Of a DNA stretch of 64,000 nt, positions 1-54,000 are shown one piece after another. Source of the stretch: Takakia lepidozioides. Lineage: Eukaryota; Plantae; Bryophyta. Below the pieces are notes generated by a model. That model did no database searches. It was not told where the DNA came from and saw nothing but the letters and a program-made list of their open reading frames with translations. Numbering within the stretch: the first letter of the stretch is position 1; each line of letters starts with the position of its first letter. Where the stretch lies: the NCBI GenBank assembly GCA_030704615.1, contig CM060733.1, positions 16,988,001 to 17,052,000 of the forward strand, in the 5' to 3' direction. The translations under genes and the position numbers were made by a program.

Positions 1-1300
1 GTGGAGGTGCAGGGAATTGCAGATGACTGGTTAGATTGGCAGTGGCCAATCAGATACTACCTTGCTCATGGTCAGTGCCCACCTAGTTATGGTAAGGAGC
101 AGAGGAAGAGAATCGCTATCAAAGCTTTACCTTATACTATGGTAGGAAGCAGAATGTATAAGCTAGGACCTGATGGAGTACTAAAACGATGCTTGTACCA
201 CCATGAAGTAAATAAAGTTTTGGAGGAAGTTCATAAAGGAGTGGTTGGAGGTCATTTTGGAGAAAAGACTACCAGTAGGAAGATACTACTCGCAGGTTAC
301 TGGTGGCCTACTTTGTTCAAAGATGTACACGAGTATTGTCAGAGTTGTGATGAATGTCAGAGGCTAGGACCTTTGCAGAGATCTGGAAGGATGGCCTTGC
401 ATCCTACAATGCCTACGGAACCATTTCAGAAATGGGGACTAGACTTTGTTGGACCGATTAACCCACCAGCCAAGAATACACGGAACAGATACATAATTAC
501 AGCCACTGATTATACTACGAAGTGGGTGGAAGCTAAAGCTTTGAGGGACAACTCAGCCAAGTCCACAGCAAGGTTCCTGTATGAGAACATACTTACACGA
601 TTTGGCTGTCCCTTAGCATTTATCAGTGATCAGGGAAGTCACTTCATGAATGAGACCATTGAGTTGTTGACTAAAGAGTTCATGATTGTACATAGAAAGA
701 GTACAACATATTACCCACAGGGTAATGGGCAGGCAGAGGCTACCAACAAAATACTATGCACTATCTTGGCTAAGATAGTCAATGCAAACAGAACGGATTA
801 GGATACAAAGCTGCTGACAGCTTTGTGGTCATACAAGACTTCATATAAAGTCACCACTAAGTATACACCATTCCAATTAGTTTATGGTATGGAAGCCTTA
901 CTTCCAGTGGAATTCCTGTTACCTACCATGAGAACGGAGTGGGAAAGAGAATGGAATTGCAAGATTCCATTAAGGTCAGGAAACATGAATTATACCATGT
1001 GGAAGAAGTACGTGATGATGCAGCTGATAATATGACCAGAATTCAGATGAAGAGAAAGGAACAGTTTGATGAAGGCAAGTTAAAGACTTTTAAGACGGGG
1101 GATTTGGTTCTATGGTTGCAGAAGAAAGGAAAGATTAAAGCTTTTAAGCTTAAATCACCATGGAAATGACCTTATGTCATACAAAAGATGTATGATAACA
1201 ACACCGCCATATTACAAACCATTAACAAAGAAATGATGGGAAGAGTCAATGCCAATAAGTTAAAGGGATACAGTGGTATCCATGACAAACCATTGCAGCA
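1..1300 (+). mobile_element. Ty3/gypsy LTR retrotransposon pol 3' end (integrase), degenerate
   Basis: ORF 1-801 has the HHCC zinc finger (H..GGH...CQSCDEC), WGLDFVGP, ISDQGSHF and YPQGNGQAE (D,D35E core). Premature TAG at 799-801. Integrase-like reading (YKTSYK..TPFQLVYG, FKTGDLVL) continues in other frames to about 1270. Confidence 0.93.
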
Positions 1301-16365: not shown

Positions 16366-17151
16366 TGGTTACAGTGGGTCACAAAGGGTTACATGGGTTA
16401 CAGAGGGTCACAAAGGGTTATATGGGTTACAAAGGGTTACATGGAGTGAGGGTTACATAGGGGTGAGGGTGACACTCTGCGGTGTTACAGAGGGATACAC
16501 GGGTTACAGAGGGTTACATGGTGGTGAGGGTTACACCTGGTGAGGGTTACGGAGGGTTACATGGAGTGAGGGTTACATAGGGGTGAGGGTGACACTCTGA
16601 GGTGTTACAGAGGGTTACATGGTGGTGAGGGTTACAGGGGGTTACAGGGGGTTACAGGTGAGGGTTATATGTTGAGGGTTACAGAGGGTCATGGGGTTAC
16701 ATGGGTTACAGAGGGTTACATGGGTTAAGAGGGTCACAGAGAATCACATGGGTTGCAAAGTTTTACAGAGGGTTACATGGAGTGAGGGTTACATAGGGGT
16801 GGGGGTGACACTCGCGGTGTTACAGAGGGTTACACCTGGTGAGGGTTACAGAGGGTCATGGGGTTACATGGGTTGCAGGGGTTGCAGAGGGTTACATGGG
16901 TTACAAAGGGTTACATGGTGGTTAGTGGTTACTGGCGGACTGGTGGAAGCGGCGTACTGGTGTCGCATAACGACGACGCGCCGGGGGCGACGACGCCGTT
17001 GGGATGAGAGCGGGGGTGGGGAGGGATTGACCGAGCCCAGCCGGCTGCCTTTCGATGGCTGCCGGAGGCGGACAACTGGCGGTACGGGGTGTCAGGGCTG
17101 GACCGTCCTGACGCGCTCGCATTAAGTTCTTACATTATTCCTATTATCTTC
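16366..17151 (+). repeat. GGGTTACA-rich tandem array plus conserved ~245-bp terminal module of an unclassified element
   Basis: Dozens of GGGTTACA(T/G) units in 16366-16920. 16909-17151 is nearly identical to 31559-31804 and partly matches 34735-34839. All three end in CCTATTATCT(T/G)C. Confidence 0.85.
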
Positions 17152-17796
17152 CAATTTCAGGGGCTTAATCTTGCCAACGTTGACCAGTTAAAACGTGCCA
17201 TATGGAAAATAGCCACTTTTCTAGCTCTGTCACCTCGATATTCTCGCCACTCGGGCACCGGTTAGAATTCACAGGTGGCCTCGCCAGCGATTTTGGAAAT
17301 ATGAAAAAAGAAACATTGCTCTGAGCCACTCGTGCTGTTTTCCAAATTTCTTCAAAAAAACAGTGTGAATTACACTCAACCCAGCTGCACTTAGACTTGG
17401 AGCAATTAGTGATGTGATGTGTTAAGTAATGGGAGAGGCTAATGATGGCAAAGATTTCAGAAGCAAGGAAGGGCAAGGATTTTCTTCAGATGATTGCTTT
17501 ACACTTTTGTTTCAACCGTGGATATGGAAGAAGAACAACACTGAATCTTTCAAATTGAAGGGCACCACTGGATGGGTGTTTCTAATCGAGGGCACGCTGC
17601 TGACAGACCTACTGATAACTTTTTACATATCCAAAGTGAGCGTTGGATATCCATCGCTCAACGATTTAGCTGCTTGCATCTCGTATGTCCGAGTCTCTGG
17701 ACGATTGTGAAACAAAACCCACAAGATGGAACAATTCCAATTTTGAGGTGTGCTGAGAGAGCTGAAGGTATTCATGCGGGAGAGCTTGAGGCGTCC

Positions 17797-20588
17797 ATGG
17801 CAGCAGTGTCGGTCTCTACTTGGCCAGGCCGCTTGCCAGTGCAGTTCTCATCGCGCCAAAGCTTCTTGCAGTCTTGCTGTTGCAAACCTCTCTCTGCTCT
17901 TATAAGGCACAGTCAGACGAAGAAGATATTAGGTCAATGTCATCCTTGCTTGTTTTGGATGGACCAGGGGCGATCAAGGCTGGTGCAGCCAGTATTTTCT
18001 CAAACCACCCGGGGTGCAACAGGGGGCCAAGGCTTGATTGTTGAGGACGAGGCAGAGCGGCTCCGGCTGGATGCCCAGGCACGCGATGCTATGGCCCAGC
18101 TTGCAAACACTCAGAGCGAGGACGCCCCGGGCGCATGGAAGTGGGAAATTCGCAAGCGTGTGTGGGACCTGTTGGAGGCCGAAAATTTGGCTCGGGACCC
18201 TCGTCCCGTGCACCACCGCATTCCTAATTTTGTGGGTGCCAACGGTGCCGCTGCAAAAGTGAGGAACAATCTAAACCCCCAAACCTCTTGGAGCCTCTAG
18301 TGAATGCCTGACATTTCACGATTCATCATATTTACTTGTAGCTCATCTGAAAATGCCACAATCCTCTGGCTGGGGCCCAAATGGCCTGGGAACTTCACCG
18401 CGTGACGGGCGGCAGTGTTGCATTTAACCGTGAATTGCATATGGCAAAAGAAGATTTTTTCCCTGGACTTTTGATACATCTTTCTTCTTTTCAATGTGGC
18501 GTTTTCTTTATGTCCTGAATATTGCATGCTGCGGCTGTAGGAAGCTCGAGGTGGTGGTGGTGGGTGTTTAGATTTGTGATGCATGGTCTTCTTGGGAATG
18601 CAACAGTTGGCCAGTCTGCCTCTATTTCAAGCTGCCCAATGTGTGAAGGTCAATCCAGATACACCTCAAAAGCAAGTACGCTTGTTGACGTTGAATGGTA
18701 ATTTTCCAGCCTTGCACACTGTGCCTCCAAGCAAGGGTTAGGCATCATGGATGATTTGTTTTTATCGTCGGTAGGCCCCCCACCATCTCATACGGGCAGT
18801 ACTCTAGCAGTGACCAGAGGTAGGGAATGTGTTGTGCAGAAGGCCCAATCTAGATAAGTGTCTTCCTCCTCTTCACTGTGTTTTGCCACAAAGTGAAGAC
18901 CATCAAAGGCAACAATTGAGAATTTTGGAGAATAGAGAGCAGAAGGATTTGGAGACGATGCTTTGCAATGTCAGTGATTTCCTAGACTTGCCAAGTATAT
19001 CTGCAGTATCAAGCTCGTTTGCAGCAGAGCTGGTACTCGAGTGAGCTACTGATTGCTACATTTGTGTGTACTAACAGCTGGCAAAAAGCTGTTGACACCG
19101 CAACCTCGACTGCGAACAGGGTTTTTCTCTGTGCTGGAGGCAGCATCTGTGCCCTCAGTACAAGACGCATGCAATAGTGCTGGTGTGGCCAAGTACGGCA
19201 CACCTGTGGGACTTGATGAAAAATTCAAAGTGGATTTGCTGGTCATTGGCTCCGTAGCTGTGGATCCCACTACTGGCGCACGTCTTGGCAAAGGCGAGGT
19301 ATTGTCTGGCTGATAACTTGCTCTTGGCCTGCAATATGTTTGAAATTTGTCTTGTTTTCTAGTTTGAAAAGTTGAACTTGTTGTCCATTGCACATTTGGG
19401 TTCTGTGCATGGTGGAAATATGCTGAGCTCCGGAGTCGTCGTGCCATAGCCCACACATGCCCTAACAGATGAGAAATGGCTGTCGGGCAGGGTTTTGCAG
19501 AGCTGGAGTATGGTTTACTCCGGTGGATGGGGGCTGTAGATGATTCCACCTGTGTAGTAACCACAGGTTAGTACAGCTTTAACCACAGCTTCTGAATACT
19601 TTATTGTTGCTCACTGATTTTAGAGTAGGTTTTGCTACAAATTTGTCTGAGAAGTATGATATATTCTTGTTGCAAAGGTTGTCAGTTCTGGCATTGACAT
19701 TCCAGTCTGAAGGCCAGGCTAAGGAGCTTTCAGTGACTGCAAATGTCATTCCACCAATGATACTGTATGATCGGCGGCAGTAGCAAACTCTTCCATGTCA
19801 GCTGATGCATCTTATGGGTGCCACTTTTTGTGCATGTTTGTGGTTGGATTCAAGCATTGATCTATGGATGAATGCAGTGCACGACAAGCAACTAGTCAAT
19901 GATATTCCTGTGGAGAAATTATTAATTCATGATGTGCCAGTGGACATCATCTGTACCCCAACACAAATAATCCACACCAACACCTCAATTCCGAAACCTC
20001 AAGGTGTGCATTCATTTGTTGTGGGAACTTGCCAGTTTGTTCTCCTTTGTGGGCATGTGATAGTTTGGAAATTCTCATTCAGAGCAACAACTTTTACATC
20101 ACAATTTCATGTTTTTTAAGGGGGTGTCACCTAATGCAGGCATCTACTGGGACAAGTTGTCACCACAAAAGCTGGAACAGATTAGGATACTGAGGGATTT
20201 AAAGCGCAGAATTGAGAAAGAGACTGGCAAGCGCCTTCCCTCGGGTCCCTCTGAAACACTCCCTCCACTTGCTGCACGAAACAGGCCTGGGAAAGGCCAA
20301 AACAACCCCAGACAACCGACAACCACATCTGGGCAGACTTTGTTCATGTGGAATATCCCTTCTACAACAACTTGGAGACAGGTTCAGGATCACGTGGTGG
20401 AACTGGGAGGGGCAGTCACAAAGGTCAGTCTGTTCAGGAAATCCGGAAACCCAACACAAATGGGCGTTGTATCATTGCAAGAAGGTGCTAATTTGGCAAA
20501 GTTGGTGGAAGATGTGGACAAGTCAATGTTGCAAGGAGCAACTGTGCGCGCCAAAATCGATGGAGCTCCTGATGTAACTACCACTTGA
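17797..20588 (+). CDS. 5-formyltetrahydrofolate cyclo-ligase-like protein COG0212 (MTHFSD-like), with plastid-type transit peptide and C-terminal RRM-like extension; 6 exons
   Basis: [27 protein letters not shown] | [13 protein letters not shown] | [29 protein letters not shown] | GFAELEYG | [18 protein letters not shown] | [16 protein letters not shown] introns; exons approx 17797-18258, 18607-18697, 19078-19298, 19491-19566, 19878-20003, 20140-20588. Confidence 0.93.
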
Positions 20589-24164: not shown

Positions 24165-24268
24165 ATGGCGGTGGCCAGGCGAGGGAATCCATTTGTGAAG
24201 TACGGAGTTCCGCTCATTTCTTTCACGGTCTTTGGGTCTCTGGCCCTAGGTCATCTGCAACAGGGCCG
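24165..24268 (+). pseudogene. COX16: Exon 1 of cytochrome c oxidase assembly factor COX16; downstream exons not found
   Basis: MAVARRGNPFVKYGVPLISFTVFGSLALGHLQQGR|gtaaat matches the plant COX16 N-terminus (PFVRYGLPMISLTVFG..GL..LLQG). Transposon DNA begins about 16 bp into the intron. Confidence 0.75.
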
Positions 24269-26539
24269 GTAAATGCTTATCTTCTCACCCTGTCCGGTGG
24301 CTTGTAACCCTGCGTTGTGTCACCCCGGCCCGTGGGTGTCCCATTGAGTGGATTACATAGGTTGAATGTGGATGGAATGGCAAAGTGAATAACAACCCAT
24401 GAACAGACATGTACTTCATATTAAACCTGGTGATCACAAAATAAGTGTCATTGCCAATGGACTTAATGGTCACTTACTATGGAACCGGTCTACAAAATCC
24501 ATTTTCCAGAGCTCAATATGGTGGAGGAGCGAGTGGTCATGGTGGGGTTTGGTCAGGAGACACAACGAAGTGGGGCTCCTAGCCAACAACAACCACTACC
24601 CCAACGTGCTCAAGGCAACAAGGGGGCTCAGGCGAAGCCCAGGGAAGGGCCGAGAGGATCTCAATTGCAGAGGTCACTTCCTTCATTCTCACACCAACAA
24701 TAGTCGGGTGTGACATGTTGGGATTGTGGAGGACCCAATGTTAAGAGAGATTGCCCGGAAAGAGGCAAAGGGCCGGCACAGGCACAGCCTACACAACTAC
24801 AATGTGGGCATTGTGGCAAGTATGGGCATGAAGAAGCCCATTGTTATGATTTGCATCCTGAGCTACGGCCAGGCCAGTTCCAAGGGAACAATGGTGGCCA
24901 AGGACAAAGCAATGTAGTCCAGAGAGGTAGAGGAGGCAGAGGTCGGGGTGGAGGACGTAACCAAAACCAAGGAGCACACGGTCAGGGTCAAGGTCATGAC
25001 CAAGGCATGGTGGATAGACTTACCCAGCTAGAGCAACGTCTTGTTGCCATGGCCACTATTCATGTTGCGCCAGCTCCAAGTCTTGAGGTTCAAGCCCCAC
25101 TTGCACAACCTCCTATGCTTAGGGAAGACCAGATTGGTATGGGCTTCATGTGTGGAGCCACACTTGCGGGACCATTGCATGTGGACTCTGCAGCTGCTGT
25201 CACTTGAGCAACAACGCGTGCTCCTGAGCCAAGAGGAACGGATGTGGATTTTGATCCACAAAGAGGGGAAGCAAGTCGGCAGAGAAGGCTTCCACAGTCT
25301 TTCACATTGGCTGACACAGTGCCAACTATGCCATCGACGGCACCAGCTCATCCAAGTGTGTCAGAGGTAGAGCCTGCAAGAGTGTCAATGGGGATAGTTG
25401 GCATGGCTCGGGGGATGTCAGTGGATGATACTGCAAAGCAAGGTGCAGCCAGTACATTGTTGGGGGCGGCTACGGCAATTTGCCAAGCTCCATTGTTTTC
25501 TGCCACGACAATTGCAATGCCAGGGATGCGGCCAACTGCAGTGTTTAGACTGACAGCTAGACTCTGTGAGAGTGGTGATGCATCGGCACTATCTGCGGGG
25601 ATAGCAGATCAGGTGTAGTGCATGGATGCTCTGGATTCAAGGATGAAGACAGCCACAGCTGCGCCATGGCAAGCGGCAGCTGGAAGATTGCAAGAGTTGC
25701 CAGCTAGACCAACCATTGAGTGTAGTATGGTGACTCCTGGGGTAGTCATGATGGACAATCAGGATGATGTGTTTCAGTGGGTGGCCCAGCCGGGAGGAGG
25801 TATAGGCCATTGCGGGTCTTGTTGGACTCGGGAGCACAACCATTGATGTTGGGGAGAGCAGCAATTGCAGGCTTGGGTCTTACAGAGGCTGATTTGGAGC
25901 CTTGCCCTTTCCAAATTCAAACATTTTTGGGCGGTTCAGAGAAGGCACGAGGGATTACACGCCATGAGCTCTTCATTCGATTGCAGCTAGATCATCCTAC
26001 AGATGGCTTTGTCATGAGAGCTAAAGCCATTGTTACAGACGCGATGTCTTATGATGTACTTGTTGGTGGGGTTGTGTTATACCTGATGGGCTTTACTTTG
26101 GACTTTTGGGAGGAAACGACATCCTACAGGCCGGAATGGCAATCAGGGGATGGTCGGCGTGCACTGCTCCCAGCGCGGTTTATTGGGAATGTAGCAGTGG
26201 ATCATAGGAACATGATGCCCATATTGGCTACATTCTCAGGGGTGGTGGCTTGGGGTGGTGAGCTCTTGGAGGGCAATAGCCATGCAGATGATAGGCCACC
26301 ACCTGATGAGGACAAACAATTGGCATACAAGGCTGATTTGCTTCCTCATGTGTCTGTTCATATTCCACTGTGGGGTACAGTTAGGAATTTGCATCGAGTA
26401 ACAGGCGAGTGTGTGCACCAAGCATGGCAGGAGGCCTATCCATTGGTGAGCGATGGGAGTTCAGTGACATCACCTGGATCTCCTCAGTTAGCTCCTTTGG
26501 ATACAGTGCCCATTACCTGGCAACCACTTGACTCAGGGA

Positions 26540-27500
26540 TTTGTTTGCTAGACCTGTTTGGAGGCATGAACACTGGGCTTGCAGGAGTATTGCAAGCTGG
26601 GATTAAAGTACGCAAGTACTTGTATGTAGAGAAAAATGAGATAGCTCGGCGTATTTCTATGTGCCACATCGCCTTGCTCACACACCGGTATCCTGAGTTG
26701 TTGCATCTCTTAGCAATTCAAGGGTATCAAAAGGCCTTTCCAGCAGACATTACCTTGCTGGGGCGGATGATTTGGACCGGCATGGAGCCATTGACTTGGT
26801 GATAGCTGGATGGCCTTGCCAAGGACACTCTCCCGTAGGTCATGGGAACGGCTTGCATGATGCACGATCGCATTTGTTTTGGGAGATGTTGAGAGTGTTG
26901 CGTGACTTGCAGACGAGGCAAGTACAACCTCTAGCCTATATCTTGGAGAATGTTCATCTTATGGGGGACTCTCGGGCCAGGATTATGGCCAGTGTGCATC
27001 AGGTGCGGTCTTGGATTGGATCGGCGGTGCTATTGGATGCAGCAGCGGTGGGATCACGAGCGCATCGACCTCGATTGTGGTGGACCAATCTTACACCACT
27101 AGAGCTGCTCAAGAGAGCATACGATTCCATTCAACGGCCACCCAATTTCACAATTGAGGGCATTTTGGACCAAGAGAGGCAACCACAGAGGGTGCGACAT
27201 GATGACTATCCACCTCTAGCAGTGGTAAATCGAGTGGGGCAGCCATGTGCGGCCTTGCCTACGCTCATGAGATTTCCCTTGTCTCATGCTTTTCGAGACA
27301 ATGGTCCTGGGTTGATTTGGGACAGTGTGCTACTGCAATTGGTGGAGCCCAATGCAGATGAGCGAGAGCGGGCAATGGGATTTGCCATGGGCACTACAGC
27401 TGTGCCAGCTTTGTCAGAGGCATCACGTCGACATGTGTTGGGTCAAACAATGGATCTAAATTGCTTGACATGGGTCATTGGCTTGTGCATGGCTGAGCAA
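26540..27500 (+). pseudogene. C5-cytosine DNA methyltransferase domain (DNMT3-like motifs) inside retrotransposon pol
   Basis: Motif I LLDLFGG, II YVEKN, IV IDLVIAGWPCQGHS, VI YILENV, VIII HRPRLWW, IX ERERAMGF, X VLGQTMD. One frameshift at about 26760. Confidence 0.92.
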
Positions 27501-27899
27501 TGGAGGTTGCAGATAGTGGTGGCTACTTCTGCACTCCCATTTGGTATTGTATCCCCTCTGCCAACCGGGACGGTTGAGGCAGTGAGTGGGGGCGAGCATA
27601 GAATCATGGGGTGCAAACACCCATGGCAGATGTGGGATGAGATGCGCAAAGAGAGAGTCATTGGATCTCTCAAGCAGCAGTATGAGGAGTGGGGAGAGCC
27701 ATACATTGAGGATCAGTTGGAGGCCAAGGTGGCCAATATTTTTGAAGAGGTTGAGAATGTTTCTTCCCCAGAGGATGTTTTCAAGGTGGCTATGGCGGAG
27801 CAAGTGGAGGCTACGCCACGGTTAGGGTGGGCGGATAAAGCCCAAGAGGTTGCTATCTAGCAACCAAAGGATGCGTCTCCTACTTCCAAGCCTGGTGTA

Positions 27900-29350
27900 C
27901 CCAAGGTTGCAGTCACTGAGGACAACTGGGAACCAGATGTTAGACCTACAGTCACCGCAGGAGAGAGATGGAGGATCCAGCGATTTCTAAGGGCTTATAG
28001 AAATTGCTTTGCCTTCGGTTTGAAGGATTTGGGGAGTTTGAAGGGCCAGGAGATTTGTATTGATTTGGCAAGTGACACGCCAATCTTTCGAAGGCCCTAC
28101 CGGTATAGTGACATGGAGAATTTATCGATCTAGTCACGGACTATGGAGTTGTTTGAAGCTGGATTCGTGGAGTTGTTAGGTGGGGAGTATGCCTCGGCAA
28201 CGGTGATGCCAGCTAGGAAGGATATCTATGGCAATTGGACAGAAAGAAGGATGTGTGGAGACTATCGTCCTGTGAACCGTCAGACTAAGTCCGATAGATA
28301 TGCCATGCCAACTCCAGAGGAAATCTTTGATGCCATTGGGCATGCGAAGGTGTTTAGCACATTGGACTTGCGATCCGGTTACCACCAGTTGCCAATCAAA
28401 GAGGCTGACAAGCAAAAGACGGCATTCTGGGGGACTGACCAACATGGGAATGATTGCTTGTACCAATGGCGCTTCCTACCGTTTGGGTTGAAGAATGCTC
28501 CTGCAGAGTTTCAGAGGGTTATAGATAGGATTCTCGCGGGGTTAGACGTTGCCCGATGTTACATTGATGACATCATCATCTTTAGTGCTACAATTGAGGA
28601 GCATGAGAGACACCTTCAGGTGGTGTTTGAGCGCTTGAGAGCACATGGGTTGAAATTGCACCCTGACAAGTGCAAGTTCTTCCACAACCAGATTGAGTAT
28701 CTGGACCACATGATATACCTTGGAGGATTGGGTGTTCAAAAGACGAAGGTGGAGGCCATTGCACGCATTCCACGCCCCATATATGTTAGCAGAGTTCGTG
28801 CTTTCATGAGGTTGGCAAATTACTATCGACGGTTTGTCAAGGGATTTAGCAGCATTGCAAAGGCTCTTACTAAGTTGACCAAGGTGGGTCAGGAGTGGCA
28901 GTGGGAGGAGGAGCAGGAGGAAGCCTTTGAGGAACTCAAGGCTCGATTGACTTCTGAGACGGCCTGTTTGGGGGCGGTCTTTCCAGCTACGTACGGATTG
29001 GATTATGCTGGGGATTGGAGCAGTGCTCACACAAATGGATGATGAGGGAAGAGAGTTTGTAGTGGCATATGCTAGCCGCTCAAACAATGATGTCGAGGCA
29101 AAGTATAGTTCCTATGAAGGGGAGTGTGTAGCTGCGGTATGGGCAGTGGCACATTTCAGATGCTACCTCTATGGCGATCTCTTCACCCTTGTCACGGATC
29201 ACCAACCATTGAAGTGGTTGATGGAGTCAGACAAGCTTACATGGAAGCTTGCACGGTGGGCACTTATGCTTCAAGAATACGACTTTCAGGTGGTGTATCG
29301 AGCCGGTATTGTCAATCGGGATGCAGATGGATTGAGTCGTAATCCATGCA
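27900..29350 (+). pseudogene. Reverse transcriptase and RNase H of the gypsy element
   Basis: ORFs 28143-29042 and 29005-29817 carry canonical motifs, with frameshifts. Confidence 0.95.
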
Positions 29351-29699
29351 CGAGCGAGCATGATGATACTGGAGCTCGGTGGCATGGTGAGACGGATGAG
29401 GAGATGGTGCCAGGATGGCATGCATCTGCCTTTTTGTGCATCCTAGCAATGGGAGCTCAAGCTGGTCCATCCCATAGCATTGGTCATGTAGATGGTGTGC
29501 ATGACGATTCGGAGATCAGTGAGGAGCTTGGAGGTGTTAAGGATGTACATGAAGATGCAGCAGTGTTGGCCTACCTTCGTACTGGAGAGACAGCAGCCAA
29601 TGTGACTACTAAGGAGAGAGATCGGATCCTACAACAAGCCAAAAGGTTCAAGTGGGAGGGGACTCACCTACTCCGAGTATGGGAGGATGGACGAGTGAG

Positions 29700-30762
29700 G
29701 ATTGTGTCTCATCCAACACAACGAGCGCGATTGGTACACCATGCCCAAGGGGAGTTGGGACATTTTGGGGTGCGGCAGACTCATAGTTTGCTTCAAAGAC
29801 AGTTATGGTGGCATTGACTGACAAGGCAAGTGAGGGGGCTGCGTATACATTCATAGATCGAGTGCTTAGCCAATTTGGTGCTCAAGCCGAGGTACTCACG
29901 GACCACGAGAGAGTTCTTGGGGGAGTTTCAGGCTTTGTGTGAGCAAGCCTTGATAGACCGCACTACTTCTCGGGATCATCCTGAGGCTGATGGCCTGACA
30001 GAGAGGGTTGTACAAACAGTCAAGCGAGGCTTGCGCAAGTATGGCTTGCAGAAGGGACACTTAGGAGATTGGGACCTTCAGCTACCTTGGTTGGCCATGG
30101 GCTACAGGTTTAGCAAACAAGCATCACTTGCCTCGTTCTCGCCGTATTTCCTTCTCTTTGGCCGAGAGCCAGATTTGTCTGCATCTATTCACAGGGAGAC
30201 TGCAGTAGTTCTCAACCTTGATGATCCGGATGTGTGGACACAAGCATGTGCCCAACGGGCAGAGTTATTCAAGAGAGTCATGCCTATGGCTTTTGAGAAC
30301 CTTGCTATTGCCCAACACCGAGACACGTTGAGGTACGCCACTATACGTGGAGGGGGATATCGGCCAAGTGTTTAACGTTTCCACCTTGGGGACTATGTGT
30401 ATCTGCAGCAGACAACGCCTACGACTTTGGATGTCATAGCAGGACGTGTGATTCTAAGGGTCCGGGAGGTGTTGCATTCAGGAGTGTTGATTCTGGAGGG
30501 TCGAGATGACATGGTATGGAAGGACCATGTGCGCAATTGTGCGCCATTTCACCTTCCACATGTGGATGGGAGGATAGATCCCAACCTTGCAGTGGTACCT
30601 GCAGGGTTGCGTTGCATGCTATGTGGGCATGCTAGTGGTGCCGTGACCATGTTGGTGTATGACAAATGCTCAAGAAGGTGATACATGGAATGCTTGACAC
30701 CGCCACTTGAGGAGGTTCCTAGTGGAGAATGGTTGTGTCCACGATGCCTTGGACATAGGTAG
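29700..30762 (+). pseudogene. Integrase (internally deleted) with C-terminal PHD finger
   Basis: HHAQGELGHFG, a gap, then HPEADGLTERVV..FSPYFLLFGREP. C-terminal CMLCG..MLVYDKCSRR*YMECLTPPLEEVPSGEWLCPRC fits a decayed C4HC3 PHD finger. Confidence 0.85.
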
Positions 30763-31019
30763 TGGGCATGACAATGGTGGAATTGACAAGTGATCCAAGG
30801 TCTAGCTGATGGGAGCTCAACGCCATGGATACTTAATTGAAGATCATGGATTGCAAGAAGGCGAGTAACGACGGGGCTATTTTTGCACCCGACCTCTTGA
30901 TCTATTGACTTTAGATACTGGGACATGTGCGATTGAAGACCAAGCGATGATTTTATTGAGATGGATACTTGTCAGCTATCCGGTGTTAGAGGGACCTAAT
31001 CACCAGCTAGGGGGGCGAT

Positions 31020-31558
31020 TGTGGCATAGCTTGCTAGGATTGTGTGCTTAGAATGTAAAGTGGACAGCGATGTATGTTGTGGCACGATGCTTAGGTGCGC
31101 GACAGCTGTCATGGTTTTAGTCATGGTTAACTAGAATTACCTACTTCTAGTTAACTAGGACATTTTGGATATTTATATTTGTATTTTGTGTGTTGGGACT
31201 TCATTTGGTCTCACATGCTAAGTGAGGTATTAAACCTCACTTGGGACATGGGGATGGGTTTTCCCCTTGTGAGTTTTGAGGAGGGCTCATCTTCTTGTAG
31301 TTGAGCCTCCATGAGTTCTCCCACCTCCATAGCTCTAGGTATTGAGAGGGAGTGTGGTGAGGGCTTTGTAGGTGGATTCCTTTAGCAAAGGTGCCCTTGG
31401 CTTGACTTAGTTTATGTGACTGAGTGGATTCATGAGTGGAGTGTTTCCATTGTGTGTTCACTTCCATTATCATTGTGGCATAGCTTGCTAGGATTGTGTG
31501 CTTAGATTGTATGGTGGACAGCGATGTATGTTGTGGCATGATACTTAGGTGCACGACA
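31020..31558 (+). repeat. 3' LTR (TG...CA, 31020-31472) followed by a second copy of its first 85 bp (31474-31558)
   Basis: 31020-31104 is nearly identical to 31474-31558 and follows the PPT directly. Confidence 0.75.
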
Positions 31559-31804
31559 GGTTACATGGTGGTTAGTGGTTAGTGGTGGACTGGTGGAAGC
31601 GGCGGACTGGTGTCGCAGAACGACGACGATGCGCCGGGGGCGACGACGCCGATGGGAGGAGAGCGGGGGTGGGGAGGGATTGACCGAGCCCAGCCGGCTG
31701 CCTTTCGATGGCTGCTGGAGGCGGAGAACCGGCGGTACGGGGTGTCAGGGCTAGACCGTCCTGACGCGCTCGCATTAAGTTCTTACATTATTCCTATTAT
31801 CTTC
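31559..31804 (+). repeat. Second copy of the GGGTTACA-family terminal module
   Basis: Near identity to 16909-17151. Confidence 0.9.
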
Positions 31805-33109
31805 CCCTGAAATTTATCTGCTGCTGCTTTTTGGTGAAAAAATCAGATTTTACCCCCCATAATTCGGGTGTGCCATCGCTGGAAAAGCACTTGATTGTTG
31901 CCTGACTCTACCCTTGGTAAGTTTCGTTCAAGTTCGTGGCCAGTCGATTTGGTGTGTGGCATATCTGGAATTAGGTTCCTGCAAGCATGAATGTTTATGT
32001 CGTAGCGCTTGGAAAGAGATGGCAGATTGCCATCCAAATGATGATCATGACTAGTAACTTTCCACTTGAACTCTACAAGTACGAGCCACCGCTGCGATCT
32101 TTCATGCCTGATTCTATACTTCTTGCATTGTGCATTTGAACACAGTGGTTAATTGCCTTTCTTGAATCTTGACATTGATGCCTGTTTTGTTTATCATTCT
32201 CTATGGTGTGTTCCTTGTTGGGTTGGTATTTCTCCATTTTTTTCCTTGCCCAAAGAAGGATATACTTACGTCTTGTTAGTGAGTCTAGTTGAGCTAATTT
32301 TTGGAGCTACCTGCTAGCAATTCATGTTGTAAAACCCTAAAAATTTAGGCTGCACAGTCATTCATACATGACAATTTGTATGTGACCATTACGGTGAGGG
32401 TACCTGCACGATGATTGATCACAAAAGTCTGCTTACTATTACCTTTGTGAGGGGCTCACTCCAGTAGTTGGAGCTACCTTGATATAAACAATTTGTACAA
32501 GTGGCTGACGTTGTTTCCCGGTCAAAATCTGGCAATTTTTCGCCAGAAAGAAAAACACTGCTACAGAGTTTTGCAGAAAATAGCGGTACATTCTGTTCAT
32601 CCACCTCTATACCATAATCCATTTATATCATCCATATTTGGTGAATTCATCCATAATTTATTTTTTTATTTGATGAAATTTGGCAATTTCATCCATGACG
32701 AAATAGGGGATTTGTGACAGAATATTCCATTTTATTTTTTGAGATCGAAATCTGGCGAAAATTTGCCAGTAAAAAGCGCTGGTAATTCACCAACCTGTGG
32801 CAAAAAAACAACGAGCATCCCTTGGAATCATCTCCTCATCCTCTAAATTGTCAATTTGCGAGGAGGAAACAGTAGCAGACTCACGTACAACCATCTCCTC
32901 ATCCTGTAATTCCTTGGCCTGCTGACTAGGAACCGTCCCCCATGTATGGGATTGTGGAGGGGCCCCATAAACAACTTCATGCAGTTCACGCTGAGCATCA
33001 AAAAGGTTTTTGATCGCATTGCGCACTAGTAAGGTCATGAGCTCGGACTCATCTGCTCAGGAAAAAATATACTTTAGTCATGGAACAGGGTACATTGACA
33101 TGGGTACAT

Positions 33110-33625
33110 TCACCGTTTGTGGTTGCAATGCATAAGTGTTACACAAGGTTACATTGACTACATGGTTACATGACTCAATATGGTTACACAGACTACAAGG
33201 AGGACATAACGTGGGTTACGCTTAAAGTGGGACTAATAGTGGTTACACTAACGACGACATTGAAGGGGTTACATGACTCAATAGGATTACATGGACTACA
33301 AGGAGGACATACCATGGGCTATGCTTAAAGTGGGACTAAGACAATGGTTGTGGTTACACGAATGACCACATTAAAGGGGTTACACGAAGAGGGTCACGGT
33401 ACCTTGAATGACACATAATGGGTTACACTACTTTGGTTACATGACTCAATAGGGTTACATGGACTACAACGGGCACATAACATCGGTTACACTTAAAGTG
33501 GGGCTAAGAGAGTGGTTGGGCTTAGACTAATGACAACAAAGGGGTTACACAATGAGGGTCACACTACCTTGAATGACACATAGTGGTTTGCACTGCATGG
33601 GGTTACACTACCTTGGTTACACCTT
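33110..33625 (+). repeat. Degenerate tandem repeats (~100-170-bp units) rich in GGTTACA
   Basis: Recurring ggttacatgactcaata..ggactacaa..cttaaagtggg units at about 33165, 33268 and 33435. Confidence 0.8.
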
Positions 33626-34848: not shown

Positions 34849-35485
34849 GAGCATCCCCACCCTACACTGAACTCAGGGCCGAGTCTGATGAGAGGGCAAA
34901 ACAGGCTGAAATAGGTCGAAGAAGAAGGTGACATTGTCCCGCTTCAAGCCGTTCTTTTGCATTCCTTCAAATAGTTGCAGGACCTCCCTATGACAACCAT
35001 GCTGGGCATATCCTGCGATCATCGCATTCCACGACACCACATTTCGTTCAGCCATATTGTCGAACACTCCTTTTGCATCCTCAATGCACCCACATTTGGC
35101 ATACATGTCCACCCAGCACGCCAATGGAATATCAGGTATACACTTTCAAGGTGGGCAGGAAAAACGTCCACACTGAACCCTATATTCCATGAAAAGCGGG
35201 CACTGAATATTGTTCCGTGCACTGAACCCGAGCGCCGTATTCAGGGCCCGAATGTGCCCCTGAATCCACCACGCCCATGTCTAGCGCGTGCGTATCAACA
35301 TCTTGGCAGCGACCACGCCCCTTCCTGCCAATGGGAGGCGAATTGCACGGAAATAGCATGGGCATTTCAGGGGCTAGGGTGTGCACGAGTCGGGGCTGCC
35401 TCACCACAAAACCCAACAGGCCCTGAATCAATCGAGCAATTTTGGCATTATAGGGAGTCTTTCGGGCTCAAGGTTGGGGATGCTC
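34849..35485. mobile_element. Non-autonomous PIF/Harbinger element carrying a PPR gene fragment
   Basis: TIRs GAGCATCCCCACCCT / AGGTTGGGGATGCTC (14 of 15 match). TAA target-site duplication at 34846-34848 and 35486-35488. Confidence 0.88.
34920..35125 (-). pseudogene. PLS-class PPR gene fragment
   Basis: VDMYAKCGCIEDAKGVFDNMAERNVVSWNAMIAGYAQHG..EVLQLFEGMQ..GLKRDNVTF. Confidence 0.9.
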
Positions 35486-48090: not shown

Positions 48091-51000
48091 TCATAATGAA
48101 GGCTTCTCTGTGCTCATAGATATTAGATCCCGTGCAGCTACTTCCAACATGTCCTCAAATATCATCTTCTCCAAAGCGCAACTAACCTCCCCAATCTCAA
48201 CTCCAAAATCCAGCCATTTTGTGCCCTTCTGTGCTAAGTCATTCTTGAGGATGGCTTGTAAAGCATCGTAGTCATCTGTCAGCGGGCAGTACATCTCTTG
48301 CAATTCATCCCAAATCTCCTGGAGTAGCTGCTGGCCTACAGGCCTCTTGCAGAGGGTCGGCATGCTCCATGGCTGTGGATTCAAATACCTGTACAGCTTT
48401 CTTTCCAGAACATCACTTATACTATCGAACAGTGCTCGTCGGTTGACGGCCTCCCTTAGTCTCTTCTCCGGGCTCTTCATCAGTTGTCCATTCTGAGCTC
48501 TGATGCACTCCTGCCGCTGCAATCGGTCATCCAATCGAGCAAAGCAGGTGGGATCAATGGCATATCCTGATGCAGGCCACTTACTATCGCAAGAGCTGGT
48601 CTCCTCCATACACCCCGACATGATCAGAATCTCTTGTACATAGGCCCTCTCCTCCTCTTTGTTCTGGAAGGAGCTGCCTAAAGCAGTCATGCCTTTGTCT
48701 ATGGCTATATCACTGCCAAATGCAGCTTGTCCTTCCAGTGTTGATTTTTCAATGTGCAACTCTTGGTCATTGAGCTCAAGAGCATGTGTGACTTTGCTCG
48801 ATAAGTCCGTCAGAGGATCAGTATTTTCTTTGATAATTTCTGGAGCAGTTGTAGTGGGGGTATGTGGTGCGTGTCCATCAACAAATACAGCAGGATTGCA
48901 AGTCGTCTTAGTATCGTTTGCATGGAACATGCCTGCACAAAAAAAGAAGATCAGGTCATGTTGTCTCAAATTTCCTTTGCGACAGCATGAGGCACATTTG
49001 AGTCAAGTCTCATGTACGCACAACTTACAAGACCCTTCTGGGCTGAGCAAGGCACAGACATCCAAAAGGGCACATCCAGAGTCTGAAATGTGCATCTCTC
49101 AGTCACCAGGGGCCAGCTTTGTGGAGGCTCCAGGACAGTTTCCACATAGTGGCCATGAGATAACCCTTAAAGGGTAGATTCCCCAGAAGGGGCAGATCCT
49201 CCTGGAGCCACTGGTGACTCTTTCTCTCTCTTTTCCTCTTTTTCTCTTTTTCTCTCTCTTTTTCTATGGCAAACAATGTCTTATGAGTACATTCTTTTCC
49301 TTTGTCTCAAGCTCTTTGGCATTCCATAAACTTCGTTCCTTTTTTCCAATTCATTTCTTTTTTGCCTATTTTCTTGGTCCCACCAGCGTGAACAACCTCC
49401 AAATTGTTGTGCCCAATTGATGGCAACATAGTTACAGATCAGATTGTAGCTTACGATCAAAATATCAGCATGACTCTTCCTGAACGTAAATGTGACAAGT
49501 GGCTACTACTATTCAAGCTCAGGAGATCATAGAGGCCACGGGCCCCAGAGGGAGAAAAGAAAAGGGAATTAACTTTGTAGCAGCCAATGGAAGCCAAAGA
49601 ACTTATGGGACAAGAACGCAACAAACCAAGGCCCCAGATGCTAACCTTCATAGCAGATAACATTGACCTTCTCAGCCTCCAGACTTGGAATGCATTCCTC
49701 TGCCTGGAAAGGGCCTTTGTCCAGTACAGACACAGGGCTTGGATGCTCAAACACTGCAGCCATTTGTGTATTTTCCTGGCTATATGCAGGTTTCATCACA
49801 GAGAGTCCTTCTGGGCTCAGCACTTTGGAGAGCTCTCTCTCGTCAGCTTCGTTTGCAGCCACCTGTACAGTCAGAAAGATTTTCCGATCAGCTCAGGACA
49901 ATAGTAGGTGAAATGTATTCAGTTCTACTTGAAGGGAAGAGAGGTCAATTCCCCTCACTACTGTAGGATACTTCCGTCTGGCCAATCATAAGCAAAATTT
50001 GACATCTGGACCCACAAGCATGTCTCCCCTTCTGCATTGACTTACCTCTGCCTCTTGGTGCCTGGTTGAGGGAATTGAAATGATACTATGCTGTCCTGAA
50101 GTAGTGCTAGACAAAGCATCCTCAGGGCCGCTGTTGTTGCTGCAGCTCTCTGAGACTTGGATATAAGATTCTGGCAGCACCACAATATGTGGCTCTTGAA
50201 TTTGTTCAACCACCTGCGAAGCTTTCTCTTCAAAGACCATGTCAACTATTGGTCTGGGACTGTCTGGCCATGTAACAGGTGCAGAGGCAAAGGTAACCAT
50301 AGGAACAATATCTGGTACTATCTCCAGAATCAAGTCTTTACTTCTAGCCTTGTCCAACTGGTGTCGGTAGTCTTCTGGAACTCCATATAGTGACGTAACC
50401 TCACTATTCTCAGAGCTGATTTTCCCCGTCGCAGGCAACTCTTTGGATCTGTCCACTGAGTTTTTGGCCCTGCCTGTTGTTCGCTTAGTCCGCAGAATAG
50501 AAACCTCTGCAGGAATCCTGCCACCATGAGCGCTATTCAAAGAAGGGTCCAGCAAGACAGGGTTCTCACTGAATTCCATGACAAGGTGGTGATCAGATCT
50601 GGTACGGCTTGGAACCCTGGATGTTTCATGGTTGTTGCTTGCCCTTCCCTCCAGTATGCCACCACTGGGTTGGGACTGTAATGATCCCAACGTGGCTTTT
50701 GTCTCTTCCCTGACCTTTAATGTGGACTTTTCAGGCTTCTCTCGAGCCCTTCCACCCTCAGTCATTTGGCTAGACGTACTACCAAATGTGGTTGTACCCA
50801 AGGACCCAGACTTCGTTCCCCTAGCCATGGATGCCCGATCTCTTAGCATTGGGGGAGAGATGGATCGTGCAGCCCTGGGGTTTGATTCCCAAGGGCGAAA
50901 TTCTCCAACCTCAGAAGCCACTTTCACTGTTTGTGCTGCAATGCGTTCCCTTCGTGAGAGTCTCATGGCCGTGCCCAGCTGTATGCTGTGTTGATCAAGT

Positions 51001-54000
51001 GAATCCTGTGATTGGGACCTTGATGACCTACCCTTGTTCCCTGCCTTGGAAGTTATGAACTTACTAGTGCCCCTGCAAGCCACATTAATTCCTAGTTAGC
51101 ACCCATCCAAAGTATCATTGTGCCTTAACAGTGTAACTGATGTACATCAAAGACTCTATCCACAATGATGGGGGGTTATGCTTATGCCTTCTCCTGTCAT
51201 AATCTCTTGGTCCATATTTTCCCAAGTTAGACTCAATGCAAGTTAGTAAAGCCTACCAGCCCCTCTTAAGTTAACCCTCATATCAGCAAGCATAGGAAAC
51301 ATCCATGAACCTAACTGGGTCCTTCCCTTTCGAAATTGGGTAGCTATCTCTCTGAAAACCAGTGGTAGCTTTCAGCTGTGCTCCAAGCAAGGGGTTCTGG
51401 GCCAATATATATGCCCCACACAGCATGGCAATTCAGAAAAGTAAAATGATACTTAGAAACCCAACTGAATTTCTTAACTAGGTGTGATGACCCTAGGTGA
51501 CATTCAAAAGTGTGGAGAGGCAGAAGATACCAGTTGCTGCTACTGCTCAGATCCTCTCTGTCAATGCCAGCATGAGCTGGGCCCCTGGCCGCTCCTAAGC
51601 TGCTGGATACCCAACTTGGCACACTTGCCGAGTCCTTGTTTCGCACTAAAAGTGGGAATTGACTGGAAGCAGTTGCAGATTTTAAATTGAGCGGTTTCAT
51701 CACCACAATTGAAGCCTTGCCAGTGGCAGGATTGACAATCTGCAGTTGGCTATCTAACATACTTGACTTGCTACCGTCGACTTCCAGAGCTCCCTCATTC
51801 TGCACCCTGTTGTCCTTTTTCATCGTTTCTGAAGCAGATCTGAACTTAAGAACATCCCTGTACTCCTGGTCCATCTTTTTAAGCTCTGAAAAGGGGACTG
51901 CAATGGAAGAGGGCGCTAGCTTATTTTTTTGCCAAAGTGGCAGCCCTTCTTCCACTGCCATTTCCGTCGTTAGGACATCTAGCTTATGGTCCTTGAGCTG
52001 CTTGTGCTGAGGGGGGTGTAATAGGCCCTTGAGGTGCATGGCCTCGAGGATTTGTTTTAGGGTTTTGCGTTCCTGGATAGAGTTCCTGATGTGAAGTTGT
52101 AGCAAACGCTGGTCCATGTCACCACATAGAAATCCTTCCCTAGAGGGATTCTGGTTGTCTGGATGTTTCAAGGCAGTGGGCATCCCTTCGTTCAGGTGGT
52201 GCTTTGGAGACATAGGCAGTTTCTGAGGTGTGCAATTTTGTGCATTGTGTACCTTGTGCTGCCAGGTGACAGCGTCCAGCTGGCGTTGAGTTGGCCTTGA
52301 GTGGGGAACCCCTTCCTGTTGTCCAGCAGCGTGTAAGGAAGAATCTGACTTTGACTGTGAGTCTTTATGGACTTGTTTAGGAACTTTCTTCTCTTCCAGG
52401 AATCCCTCATTCCATTGGGACTGCAAGTGATAGTGATCTGAGGCTGGCAGAGAAGCTTCTACAGGTGGAGCAGAGTTCAACAACTTATGCAGTGATTTAC
52501 CCTCTCTGGATGAGGGCCTTACTGTCGGCGAGGGAGGGACAGAATCAGTGCTAGGAAGCTCCTGTAGACCCATCAGGCGGGCCACAACACTCGGAGCCCG
52601 CCATCTTGTTTCACCTGCTCCAATACTGTCGAAGGAGTTCTCTCTCCTGGCCTGAGGAAGTGACTCAATGATCGAGTCGTGCAAAGAATATCTCGAGGCA
52701 CAAGGATTGCTGACCTGCAATGAGTCTCTACCATCTGTTGACAACCGTGGTGTGTGCGATTGATGGGGTTCAGCTCTACTGTCTACAGAGAGCCTGGTTG
52801 AAACAGACGCACGAAGCGGGTCTCTGCCATGAACTGAATGTCGAGACGCATCCCTGTTTTTCTCCAAAGATCTAGATGAGTCTCTGGAATCAAGTGTCCT
52901 TAGGAACTCCCTGAAGTCGTGGACAGGTGAGGGCGTTATGCTGCTCTCAATTGTGTCTCGTCCAACCTCTTTGACACTCGAATGTCTGGGCAGGTCGGTG
53001 CTGCGAACAGAAACTCGCAGACCACCCTTTGATGCAGATAGGCGAGGACTTTCACCTGATGACTGTGTCAATGTGGCCACGTCTTTGCGATCAATCAAAT
53101 TTCTTGGGCTTCTAACATTTCTTTTGACTAATGACCTTGGCAGCTCCCTGCCATCAACTAATAACTGGTCTTTCTCCTGAACAGTCAAACGGCCCGGATC
53201 AACCGATAACTTTACCCCTTCCTTTCCATGAAGGAAAGTCTCTGACAATTTCACCACATGTTGGCCATCGACCAAGATTCTTGGGCTCCCAACATTTTTC
53301 TTGACGAATGACCTCGGCAGCTCCTTGCTATCAACTGATAAATGGTCTTTCACCTTAATAACATTCAAAGAGGGCACACCAAGAGATAACTGTGTCCCCC
53401 CCTTTGCACTATCAGATATCTCTGGCAAGTACTTCCCTTGATCTGGAGCCTGAGCAGCCTTCTTTGGATTCACTGCAGCTGTTTGAGGGTCCTTGCTGTT
53501 GTCCCCTGACACCCTCAACTTTTCCCTGTGAAATGCTGCTTTCAAGAAACCCCTGATGTCCCGGGATGGAGGCTTTGGTCCCTCTGTCATGGAGGTCCTC
53601 CCATCAACAGAGGCCCGGGACAAGACGGGTGCAGTTTTGGAAGGTTCCCTTTGAAGTGGACGGCTAAATGAAGTTTGGGCAGCTTTTTTGGTGGCTTTGG
53701 GGGTGTCAGATGATACCTGGGTTTCATCCTTGACATAGAAAGGGAGGAGAGGTCTTCGTCTTGTGTCAAGAGATGTACGGCCTGGCTGAAGCTTTTGGTG
53801 TACTAAGGGTTGAGATTCCTTAGAAGCTGCCAAGGACCTGGCCAACAAAACCTCAGTGTTGTCTATAGATGTGCGACGGGGGTCTCTTGAAACCTCCATA
53901 CACGCCTTAGGTTGCTCAGAGCTATCGAGAGAATGTCTCCTCCGCACAGTCTTATCTTGAAACTGCACCATACAGACGATTAAAAATCCATTTCAATAAC

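Follow-up and report, generated by a model that had tools for sequence, protein, structure and literature searches.

A DNMT3-like methyltransferase ahead of a conserved, probably leaky stop codon in a Ty3/gypsy family of bryophytes, with a decayed copy in Takakia lepidozioides

Published cases of cytosine methyltransferases carried by retrotransposons come from dinoflagellates, from Klebsormidium and from two further algae, and later papers speak of "streptophytes" with the same reference (PMC12344493; bioRxiv 10.64898/2026.05.21.726589; here and below, cited work is reported from the available parts of each source). Among these elements, KnitGypsy-Dnmt3 of Klebsormidium nitens has the repeat layout A-coding-B-A-B (de Mendoza et al., 2018; PMC5890265). 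No description from a land plant was found in the literature, although one may exist in Repbase entries, in theses, in subscription journals or in supplements outside the search. The 64,000-nucleotide stretch of Takakia lepidozioides DNA analysed here (GCA_030704615.1, contig CM060733.1, positions 16,988,001 to 17,052,000, forward strand; hereafter the window, with positions counted from its first letter) contains a decayed Ty3/gypsy element composed of a Gag remnant, a protease, a DNMT3-like C5 methyltransferase (DNMT), reverse transcriptase (RT), RNase H (RH), a broken integrase (INT) and a PHD finger. Judged from its letters, this copy is a dead, 5'-truncated member of a bryophyte Ty3/gypsy family which works like KnitGypsy-Dnmt3 and departs from it in one stated feature, the presence of the DNMT in the Pol open reading frame (ORF). 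A preliminary description of the same DNA had embedded the DNMT in Pol, between protease and RT; instead, the DNMT closes the Gag-protease ORF, and the RT lies past a conserved in-frame stop.

That a land-plant Gypsy element carries a DNMT, as the preliminary description proposed, is borne out, the DNMT being a constant part of a multi-copy family and not an insertion in a single copy. A metagenome scan gave at least 307 confirmed of 600 stretches, from which 80 loci were kept (all locus counts here rest on those 80); sister copies keep the DNMT, and its place in the element is the same in all 80 loci (or the parts of them) and in many proteins. A protein search with the DNMT frame, in which the best 7992 word-sharing candidates were scored, returned 56 matches among longer proteins, the best named ones from Marchantia polymorpha (at most 64% identical, with 79% of the query aligned) and Calypogeia fissa, with lower ones from Sphagnum fallax and Closterium; a named Klebsormidium DNMT did not turn up in the protein searches. 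Protease followed by DNMT is the architecture of named proteins in Marchantia, Calypogeia and S. fallax. The Marchantia cluster comprises 18 proteins, and the members listed sit on chromosomes 1, 2, 4, 5 and V and are annotated as hypothetical or CCHC proteins; five of these are 1278-1281 amino acids (aa) long, and four members (1280-1281 aa) and protein P0002 share the same end point after the DNMT.

An RT tree (IQ-TREE, 58 out of 136 sequences) puts the window together with Marchantia, Calypogeia and a set of 36 loci that share 80% identity or more with locus L031, hereafter the L031 group (support 100/95). As the residues at the end of the L031 ORF are those of the S. fallax protein, this group can be tied to peat moss. 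The next neighbour of the bryophyte group is a Coleochaete transcript (100/96), and a wider clade takes in Closterium and two Klebsormidium RTs from records without a DNMT (98/96). The DNMT tree (FastTree, phage outgroups only) returns the same bryophyte group, so that the RT and DNMT trees, both proposed in the preliminary description, are congruent. As reconstructed, they fit inheritance of the lineage from streptophyte algae. Viral contigs yielded phage methyltransferases only, at 31-53% identity over short stretches.

Other relatives were seen beside this group. The Coleochaete scutata transcript (P0073), sister to the bryophyte clade, encodes RT-RH-INT-PHD and, being a transcript, indicates that the lineage is transcribed in a charophyte. 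Family B, a sister family (L069-L083, L089-L110), has the DNMT fused to the RT without a stop and reads GWECQ at motif IV in place of GWPCQ; a Calypogeia RT groups with it. A separate large clade (P0038, P0222 and others) carries the same DNMT family between RNase H and integrase, accounts for 82 of the 129 near-full DNMT matches of a representative search and includes one cluster named Scenedesmus. The DNMT family numbers 453 clusters at E <= 1e-30, and DNMT-bearing Gypsy elements, going by these matches, likely extend to chlorophytes. More distant RT relatives (P0165, P0169, P0173, P0185) bear a Dam adenine methyltransferase domain (PF05869).

In the lineage of the window copy a stop lies between DNMT and RT. 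Most homologous proteins stop about 80-160 residues past motif X, and a stop in frame with the RT closes the DNMT frame, 43-50 codons ahead of a fixed RT anchor. Within the L031 group 31 loci cover this codon and 30 of them have a stop there, the maximum at any other of 707 codons being 7 of 25; the contexts are TAG CAA CCC (21 loci), TAA CAA CCC (seven), TAG CAA CCT, TAG TAA CCC and a sense codon (one each). Other lineages read TAG CAA CCA (window), TAG CAG TTA (L059 and L060) and TAG CAA TCA (L064 and L085). Between-lineage conservation is the stronger argument, because the L031-group loci include near-duplicates: the context is kept across lineages with a synonymous divergence (dS) above 1.3 while the second residue varies (P, L, S), for which reason a constraint at the nucleotide level is suspected. 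The arrangement is clearest in L060, in which two open frames, Gag-protease-DNMT of 1369 aa and RT-RH-INT-PHD of 1047 aa, are separated by TAG CAG TTA only. UAG followed by CAR YYA is the readthrough signal of tobacco mosaic virus (TMV), with 6-10% readthrough in transgenic Arabidopsis and 32% in transient assays (PMC2754532), and this context is present in the window, L059, L060, L064 and L085. The conserved UAG is thus likely read through, as far as sequence comparison can tell, and a conserved leaky stop suggests that the dose of the enzyme matters. RNA folding past the stop in four lineages, run without a shuffle control, gave no common structure. Readthrough in these elements goes unmentioned in the available parts of the literature, including PMC6317226, PMC9940879, PMC11982613, PMC8616336, PMC6453930 and bioRxiv 10.1101/2021.11.30.470311.

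The enzyme itself appears to be maintained. Compared with sequences in the PDB, the DNMT of an intact relative is closest to DNMT3A/B (6e-08), with DRM2 at 0.004-0.03, and its predicted model (pLDDT, the predicted local distance difference test score, 96.5) has DNMT3A as best fold match (E 9e-21, TM 0.72); the modelled enzyme is DNMT3-like, with a DNMT3 fold. The catalytic Cys, the Glu-Asn of motif VI and the Arg of motif VIII are invariant in all 54 aligned sequences. Between lineages the ratio of nonsynonymous to synonymous divergence (dN/dS) of the DNMT is 0.11-0.21, with 0.21 in a single pair and 0.11-0.17 in the other seven of the eight that gave a value; the RT has 0.04-0.10 and the linker 0.43-0.61. 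The DNMT is under purifying selection. A recent origin from DRM or from a host DNMT3 was rejected: motifs I to X stand in order, and a Pfam scan of the element DNMT gave no match to DUF3444, a domain that host plant DNMT3s carry (PMC6453930). A C-terminal PHD finger, absent from the domains of the preliminary description, is also present; it is intact in L060 (E 2.6e-10) and resembles the fingers of CHD4, PHF21A, ATXR5, KDM5 and UHRF1. Those fingers are readers of unmodified H3 tails, as is the ADD domain of DNMT3A.

The features of the window copy are the following.

24509 to 25795, plus strand: C-terminal Gag remnant with zinc knuckles and three stops (tblastn, Marchantia P0002 residues 233-627).
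25792 to 26200, plus strand: aspartic protease, LLDSGA at 25819-25836 (Asp_protease_2 E 0.021; 49% identity to P0002).
26527 to 27506, plus strand: DNMT3-like C5 cytosine methyltransferase, motifs I-X unrearranged, with a private frameshift near 26759 (PF00145 E 8.5e-12).
27858 to 27866, plus strand: conserved in-frame UAG followed by CAA CCA, between DNMT and RT, a CAR-YYA readthrough-type context.
27921 to 28950, plus strand: reverse transcriptase, YIDD at 28560, private stop at 28131 (RVT_1 E 6.6e-33).
28975 to 29280, plus strand: RNase H, out of frame through a deletion near 28950 (RT_RNaseH E 1.2e-32).
29737 to 30612, plus strand: integrase, broken by frameshifts and stops (Integrase_H2C2 E 0.0017; tblastn with P0036 and L060 ORF2).
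30613 to 30747, plus strand: PHD finger at the integrase C-terminus, degenerate here (PF00628 E 9.7e-05 on the second half).
31006 to 31017, plus strand: polypurine tract, by sequence; relatives have the same tract ahead of B1.
31018 to 31104, plus strand: terminal repeat B1, ending GCGACA (93% identity to 31472-31558 over 87 nucleotides, nt).
31107 to 31471, plus strand: terminal repeat A2, starting TGTCA (junction motif; the segment is also 5' in complete relatives).
31472 to 31558, plus strand: terminal repeat B2, the element's 3' end, ACGACA (comparison with B1 and relatives).

Much of the preliminary description is recovered in this map. Protease and DNMT motif I share one stop-free frame (25768-26802; motif I, LDLFGG, at 26548-26565), the remaining DNMT motifs follow in the frame 26697-27860 (IV, GWPCQ, at 26808; VI, ENV, at 26946; VIII, RPRLWW, at 27066; IX at 27360; X at 27441), and the PF00145 profile (E 8.5e-12) agrees with the assignment. 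The single frameshift it described holds for the DNMT and fails for the element as a whole, which has seven internal stops besides 27858 (24701, 25205, 25616, 28131, 29815, 30373 and 30679), four frameshifts (near 25793, 26759, 28950 and 29910) and an integrase deletion of about 50 residues, including part of the zinc-binding domain and the first catalytic Asp. RT, RNase H and integrase were likewise found after the DNMT, with the conserved stop intervening and the integrase broken, and an element placed at 25777 to 30762 turns out to be larger, from the Gag remnant at 24509 to the terminal repeats ending at 31558. The first approximately 230 residues of Gag and the 5' repeat A are gone, a second copy of which was not found within the 64-kb window. 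An assembly artefact was rejected: contigs of run X1, possibly from the same source DNA, match the window over 26540-29065 without a difference, so that assembly is not an obvious source of the lesions. In run X5, sister contigs have an open frame at the position of the DNMT frameshift; the stop at 28131 is absent from sister contigs in all four runs compared, and the contigs show at least one further element copy, about 87% identical, in this organism.

The ends of the element are as distinctive as its coding region. The preliminary description had looked to intact copies with two long terminal repeats (LTRs); the relatives carry split repeats in the order A-coding-B-A-B instead, with the polypurine tract ahead of the first B. 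The layout is complete in L066, L068, L072, L076 and L079, and the window retains its B-A-B half, seen as a 98-nt repeat at 31018 and 31472. Elements start with TGTCA and finish with ACGACA, and GACA-NN-TGTC is the sequence of the internal B/A junction in all lineages and in the window, where NN is GC (GACA-GC-TGTC); the motif was found in 14 of the 80 loci. Target duplications of 4 bp flank three of five loci with both ends in an automatic test, and L079 and L075 by eye; L072 has none. Relatives possess TG...CA ends and a short target-site duplication, as in canonical LTR elements. A tRNA primer-binding site after A1 was absent in all four loci examined, the sequence there starting CTCAAAG or TCTAGAA and not TGG. 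The split repeats and the missing tRNA primer site do not fit a canonical two-LTR structure; membership in DIRS/Ngaro was rejected too, L060 ORF2 having an rve integrase (E 9.8e-14) and no recombinase family. From the repeat sequences we infer that the internal B/A junction may be the template for both ends.

Around the element, host genes are recognizable. A 5-formyl-tetrahydrofolate (THF) cyclo-ligase-like gene with an RRM lies at 17545-20588, with best named matches in Sphagnum (63-64%), a PPR fragment at 34873-35142 and a VARLMGL/DUF4378 gene at 48091-53992. A COX16-like gene has its first coding exon (24165-24268; PF14138 E 5e-4) just upstream of the element, and a motif scan of the window gave no further COX16 exon. 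A contig of run X1 joins this exon GT..AG into the Gag remnant at 24510, out of the Gag frame, a pattern that is RNA-like and was not counted as expression evidence. Run X8 diverges after 24302 and continues into host sequence absent from the window; this block may be polymorphic, or run X8 may show a paralogue. The 3' end of the element adjoins one copy of a GGGTTACA-rich repeat family (16909-17152, 31559-31805, 33138-33538), and window positions 10-906 hold a piece of integrase from an unrelated Gypsy element, with 27% identity to the DNMT-bearing family.

A life cycle can be proposed in which translation would mainly yield Gag-protease-DNMT and, by occasional readthrough of the UAG at a few to tens of percent, the full polyprotein. 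The protease would free the DNMT from its precursor, the DNMT, made at the level of Gag, would be packaged in the particle in excess, and it would methylate cytosines of the new cDNA before insertion; the element could gain by arriving pre-methylated, through a host-like look or through limited harm. The PHD-bearing integrase would then insert the cDNA, guided to unmodified H3 tails, and the internal B/A junction would serve to rebuild both element ends. To the core of this proposal, from predominant Gag-protease-DNMT through UAG readthrough to methylation of cDNA by excess packaged enzyme, we give an even chance on present sequence comparisons. Its extended form, a Gypsy lineage passed down from streptophyte algae to liverworts and mosses with a leaky UAG of viral type, a several-fold excess of DNMT over RT and integrase, self-methylation of cDNA, split repeats combined with a DDE integrase, and open first ORFs in Marchantia, is put forward tentatively and is, as a whole, rather doubtful.

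Several observations weigh against readthrough and cDNA methylation. The CAA CCC of the L031 group is one base, the last A, off the CAR-YYA consensus; the 31 covering loci, some of them near-duplicates, derive from a small number of metagenomes, and the Marchantia copies are known as proteins only, which places their stop context outside the comparison. As family B and the Closterium elements fuse DNMT and RT without a stop, an excess of DNMT is not required. Two decayed copies of the peat-moss-type L031 group give a dN/dS of 0.75. The element is no more CpG-depleted (observed/expected 0.47) than the whole window (0.50), and CHG depletion shows no element-specific signal relative to the window. 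The DNMT of KnitGypsy-Dnmt3 produced no methylation in yeast, a result its authors call inconclusive (PMC5890265). The latter finding, the lack of special CpG loss and the change of PC to EC in motif IV of family B would suit a domain that, within the same anatomy, works as a binder of nucleic acid or chromatin, or has RNA instead of cDNA as its methylation substrate; we consider this unlikely, the invariance of the catalytic Cys, the ENV Glu and the motif VIII Arg in 54 of 54 sequences and the de novo CG methylation by the related SymbioDIRS-Dnmt3 enzymes (PMC5890265) speaking against it. ORF2 might also be made by reinitiation, which an AUG 3-5 codons past the stop would permit in the L031 group and L059, or from spliced RNA, as in Ogre, where a spacer between Gag-protease and RT is removed (PMC6317226). 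However, there is a lone in-frame stop and no spacer, no contig compared has a joint over 27800-28190, the window, L060 and L085 lack a nearby AUG (the first Met of ORF2 is at codon 85-117 and in L060 at codon 117, inside the RT), and CAR-YY is preserved across saturated divergence, which makes this route quite unlikely.

The position of the DNMT in the abundant ORF, together with the resemblance of the PHD finger to those of chromatin readers such as CHD4, would also agree with an enzyme whose target is host chromatin, either where the element inserts and nearby or, as a plentiful by-product of Gag, in trans. If the protease cleaves, however, DNMT and PHD finger end up on separate mature proteins, and the methylome of Klebsormidium is ordinary and plant-like (PMC5890265), so that we hold such action to be decidedly improbable. 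A host DNMT3 retrocopy that landed once in an ordinary Gypsy element and travels as neutral cargo would be in keeping with the broken state of the window copy; this single capture is refuted by the shared position, the congruent trees and the purifying selection described above, to which the lack of DUF3444, a feature of host plant DNMT3s (PMC6453930), can be added, and it retains next to no probability. Methylation of cDNA by packaged enzyme remains the reading we prefer.

Because the family is multi-copy in Marchantia, a genetic model for which methylation mutants exist, the role of retrotransposon-borne methyltransferases can be tested directly; if the proposal is true, open first ORFs persist in several Marchantia copies under hypothetical-gene annotation. 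The split repeats explain why surveys based on two-LTR detection (LTR-FINDER; PMC6317226, in its available parts) would miss the family, and they pose the question of how an element with a DDE integrase and no tRNA primer site restores its ends.

With KnitGypsy-Dnmt3 the bryophyte element shares the Gypsy domain order RT-RH-INT with a DDE integrase, a DNMT3-type domain free of introns and of motif rearrangement, purifying selection on that domain (Ka/Ks < 0.2, here in seven of the eight between-lineage pairs) and DIRS-like A-coding-B-A-B repeats. It differs in its land-plant host and in a DNMT that closes the Gag-protease ORF before UAG-CAR-YY, whereas the DNMT of KnitGypsy-Dnmt3 shares the Pol ORF; a DNMT in the ORF of the RT was found only in family B and the Closterium elements. 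The available text on KnitGypsy-Dnmt3 does not mention a readthrough signal, a PHD finger or the length of the target duplication, and three of its supplement files contain no match for Marchantia, PHD or protease (PMC5890265). A retrotransposon-borne DNA methyltransferase is also common to SymbioDIRS-Dnmt3 and SymbioLINE-Dnmt (PMC5890265) and to EpiLTRs and DAM-LTRs (bioRxiv 10.64898/2026.05.21.726589), of which SymbioDIRS-Dnmt3 has the same repeat layout and demonstrated CG activity (PMC5890265); those elements have a tyrosine recombinase or LINE backbone, or a DNMT4-like enzyme at the 3' end of pol, unlike the bryophyte element with its DDE integrase and a DNMT ahead of the RT. Gypsy-7a_cRei of Chlamydomonas is likewise a green-lineage Gypsy polyprotein with a PHD finger, but has paired LTRs, and no DNMT is described in the available text (PMC9940879). 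The stop with its six-base context and a downstream in-frame enzyme ORF recall the UAG-CAR-YYA of tobamoviruses (PMC2754532), from which the element differs in its retrotransposon setting and in the placement of the stop after protease and DNMT. Ogre/Tat elements finally share a first ORF with Gag-protease and a second with RT-RH-INT (PMC6317226), yet Ogre has a spliced spacer of about 274 bp and canonical LTRs, where the bryophyte element has one in-frame stop and split repeats.

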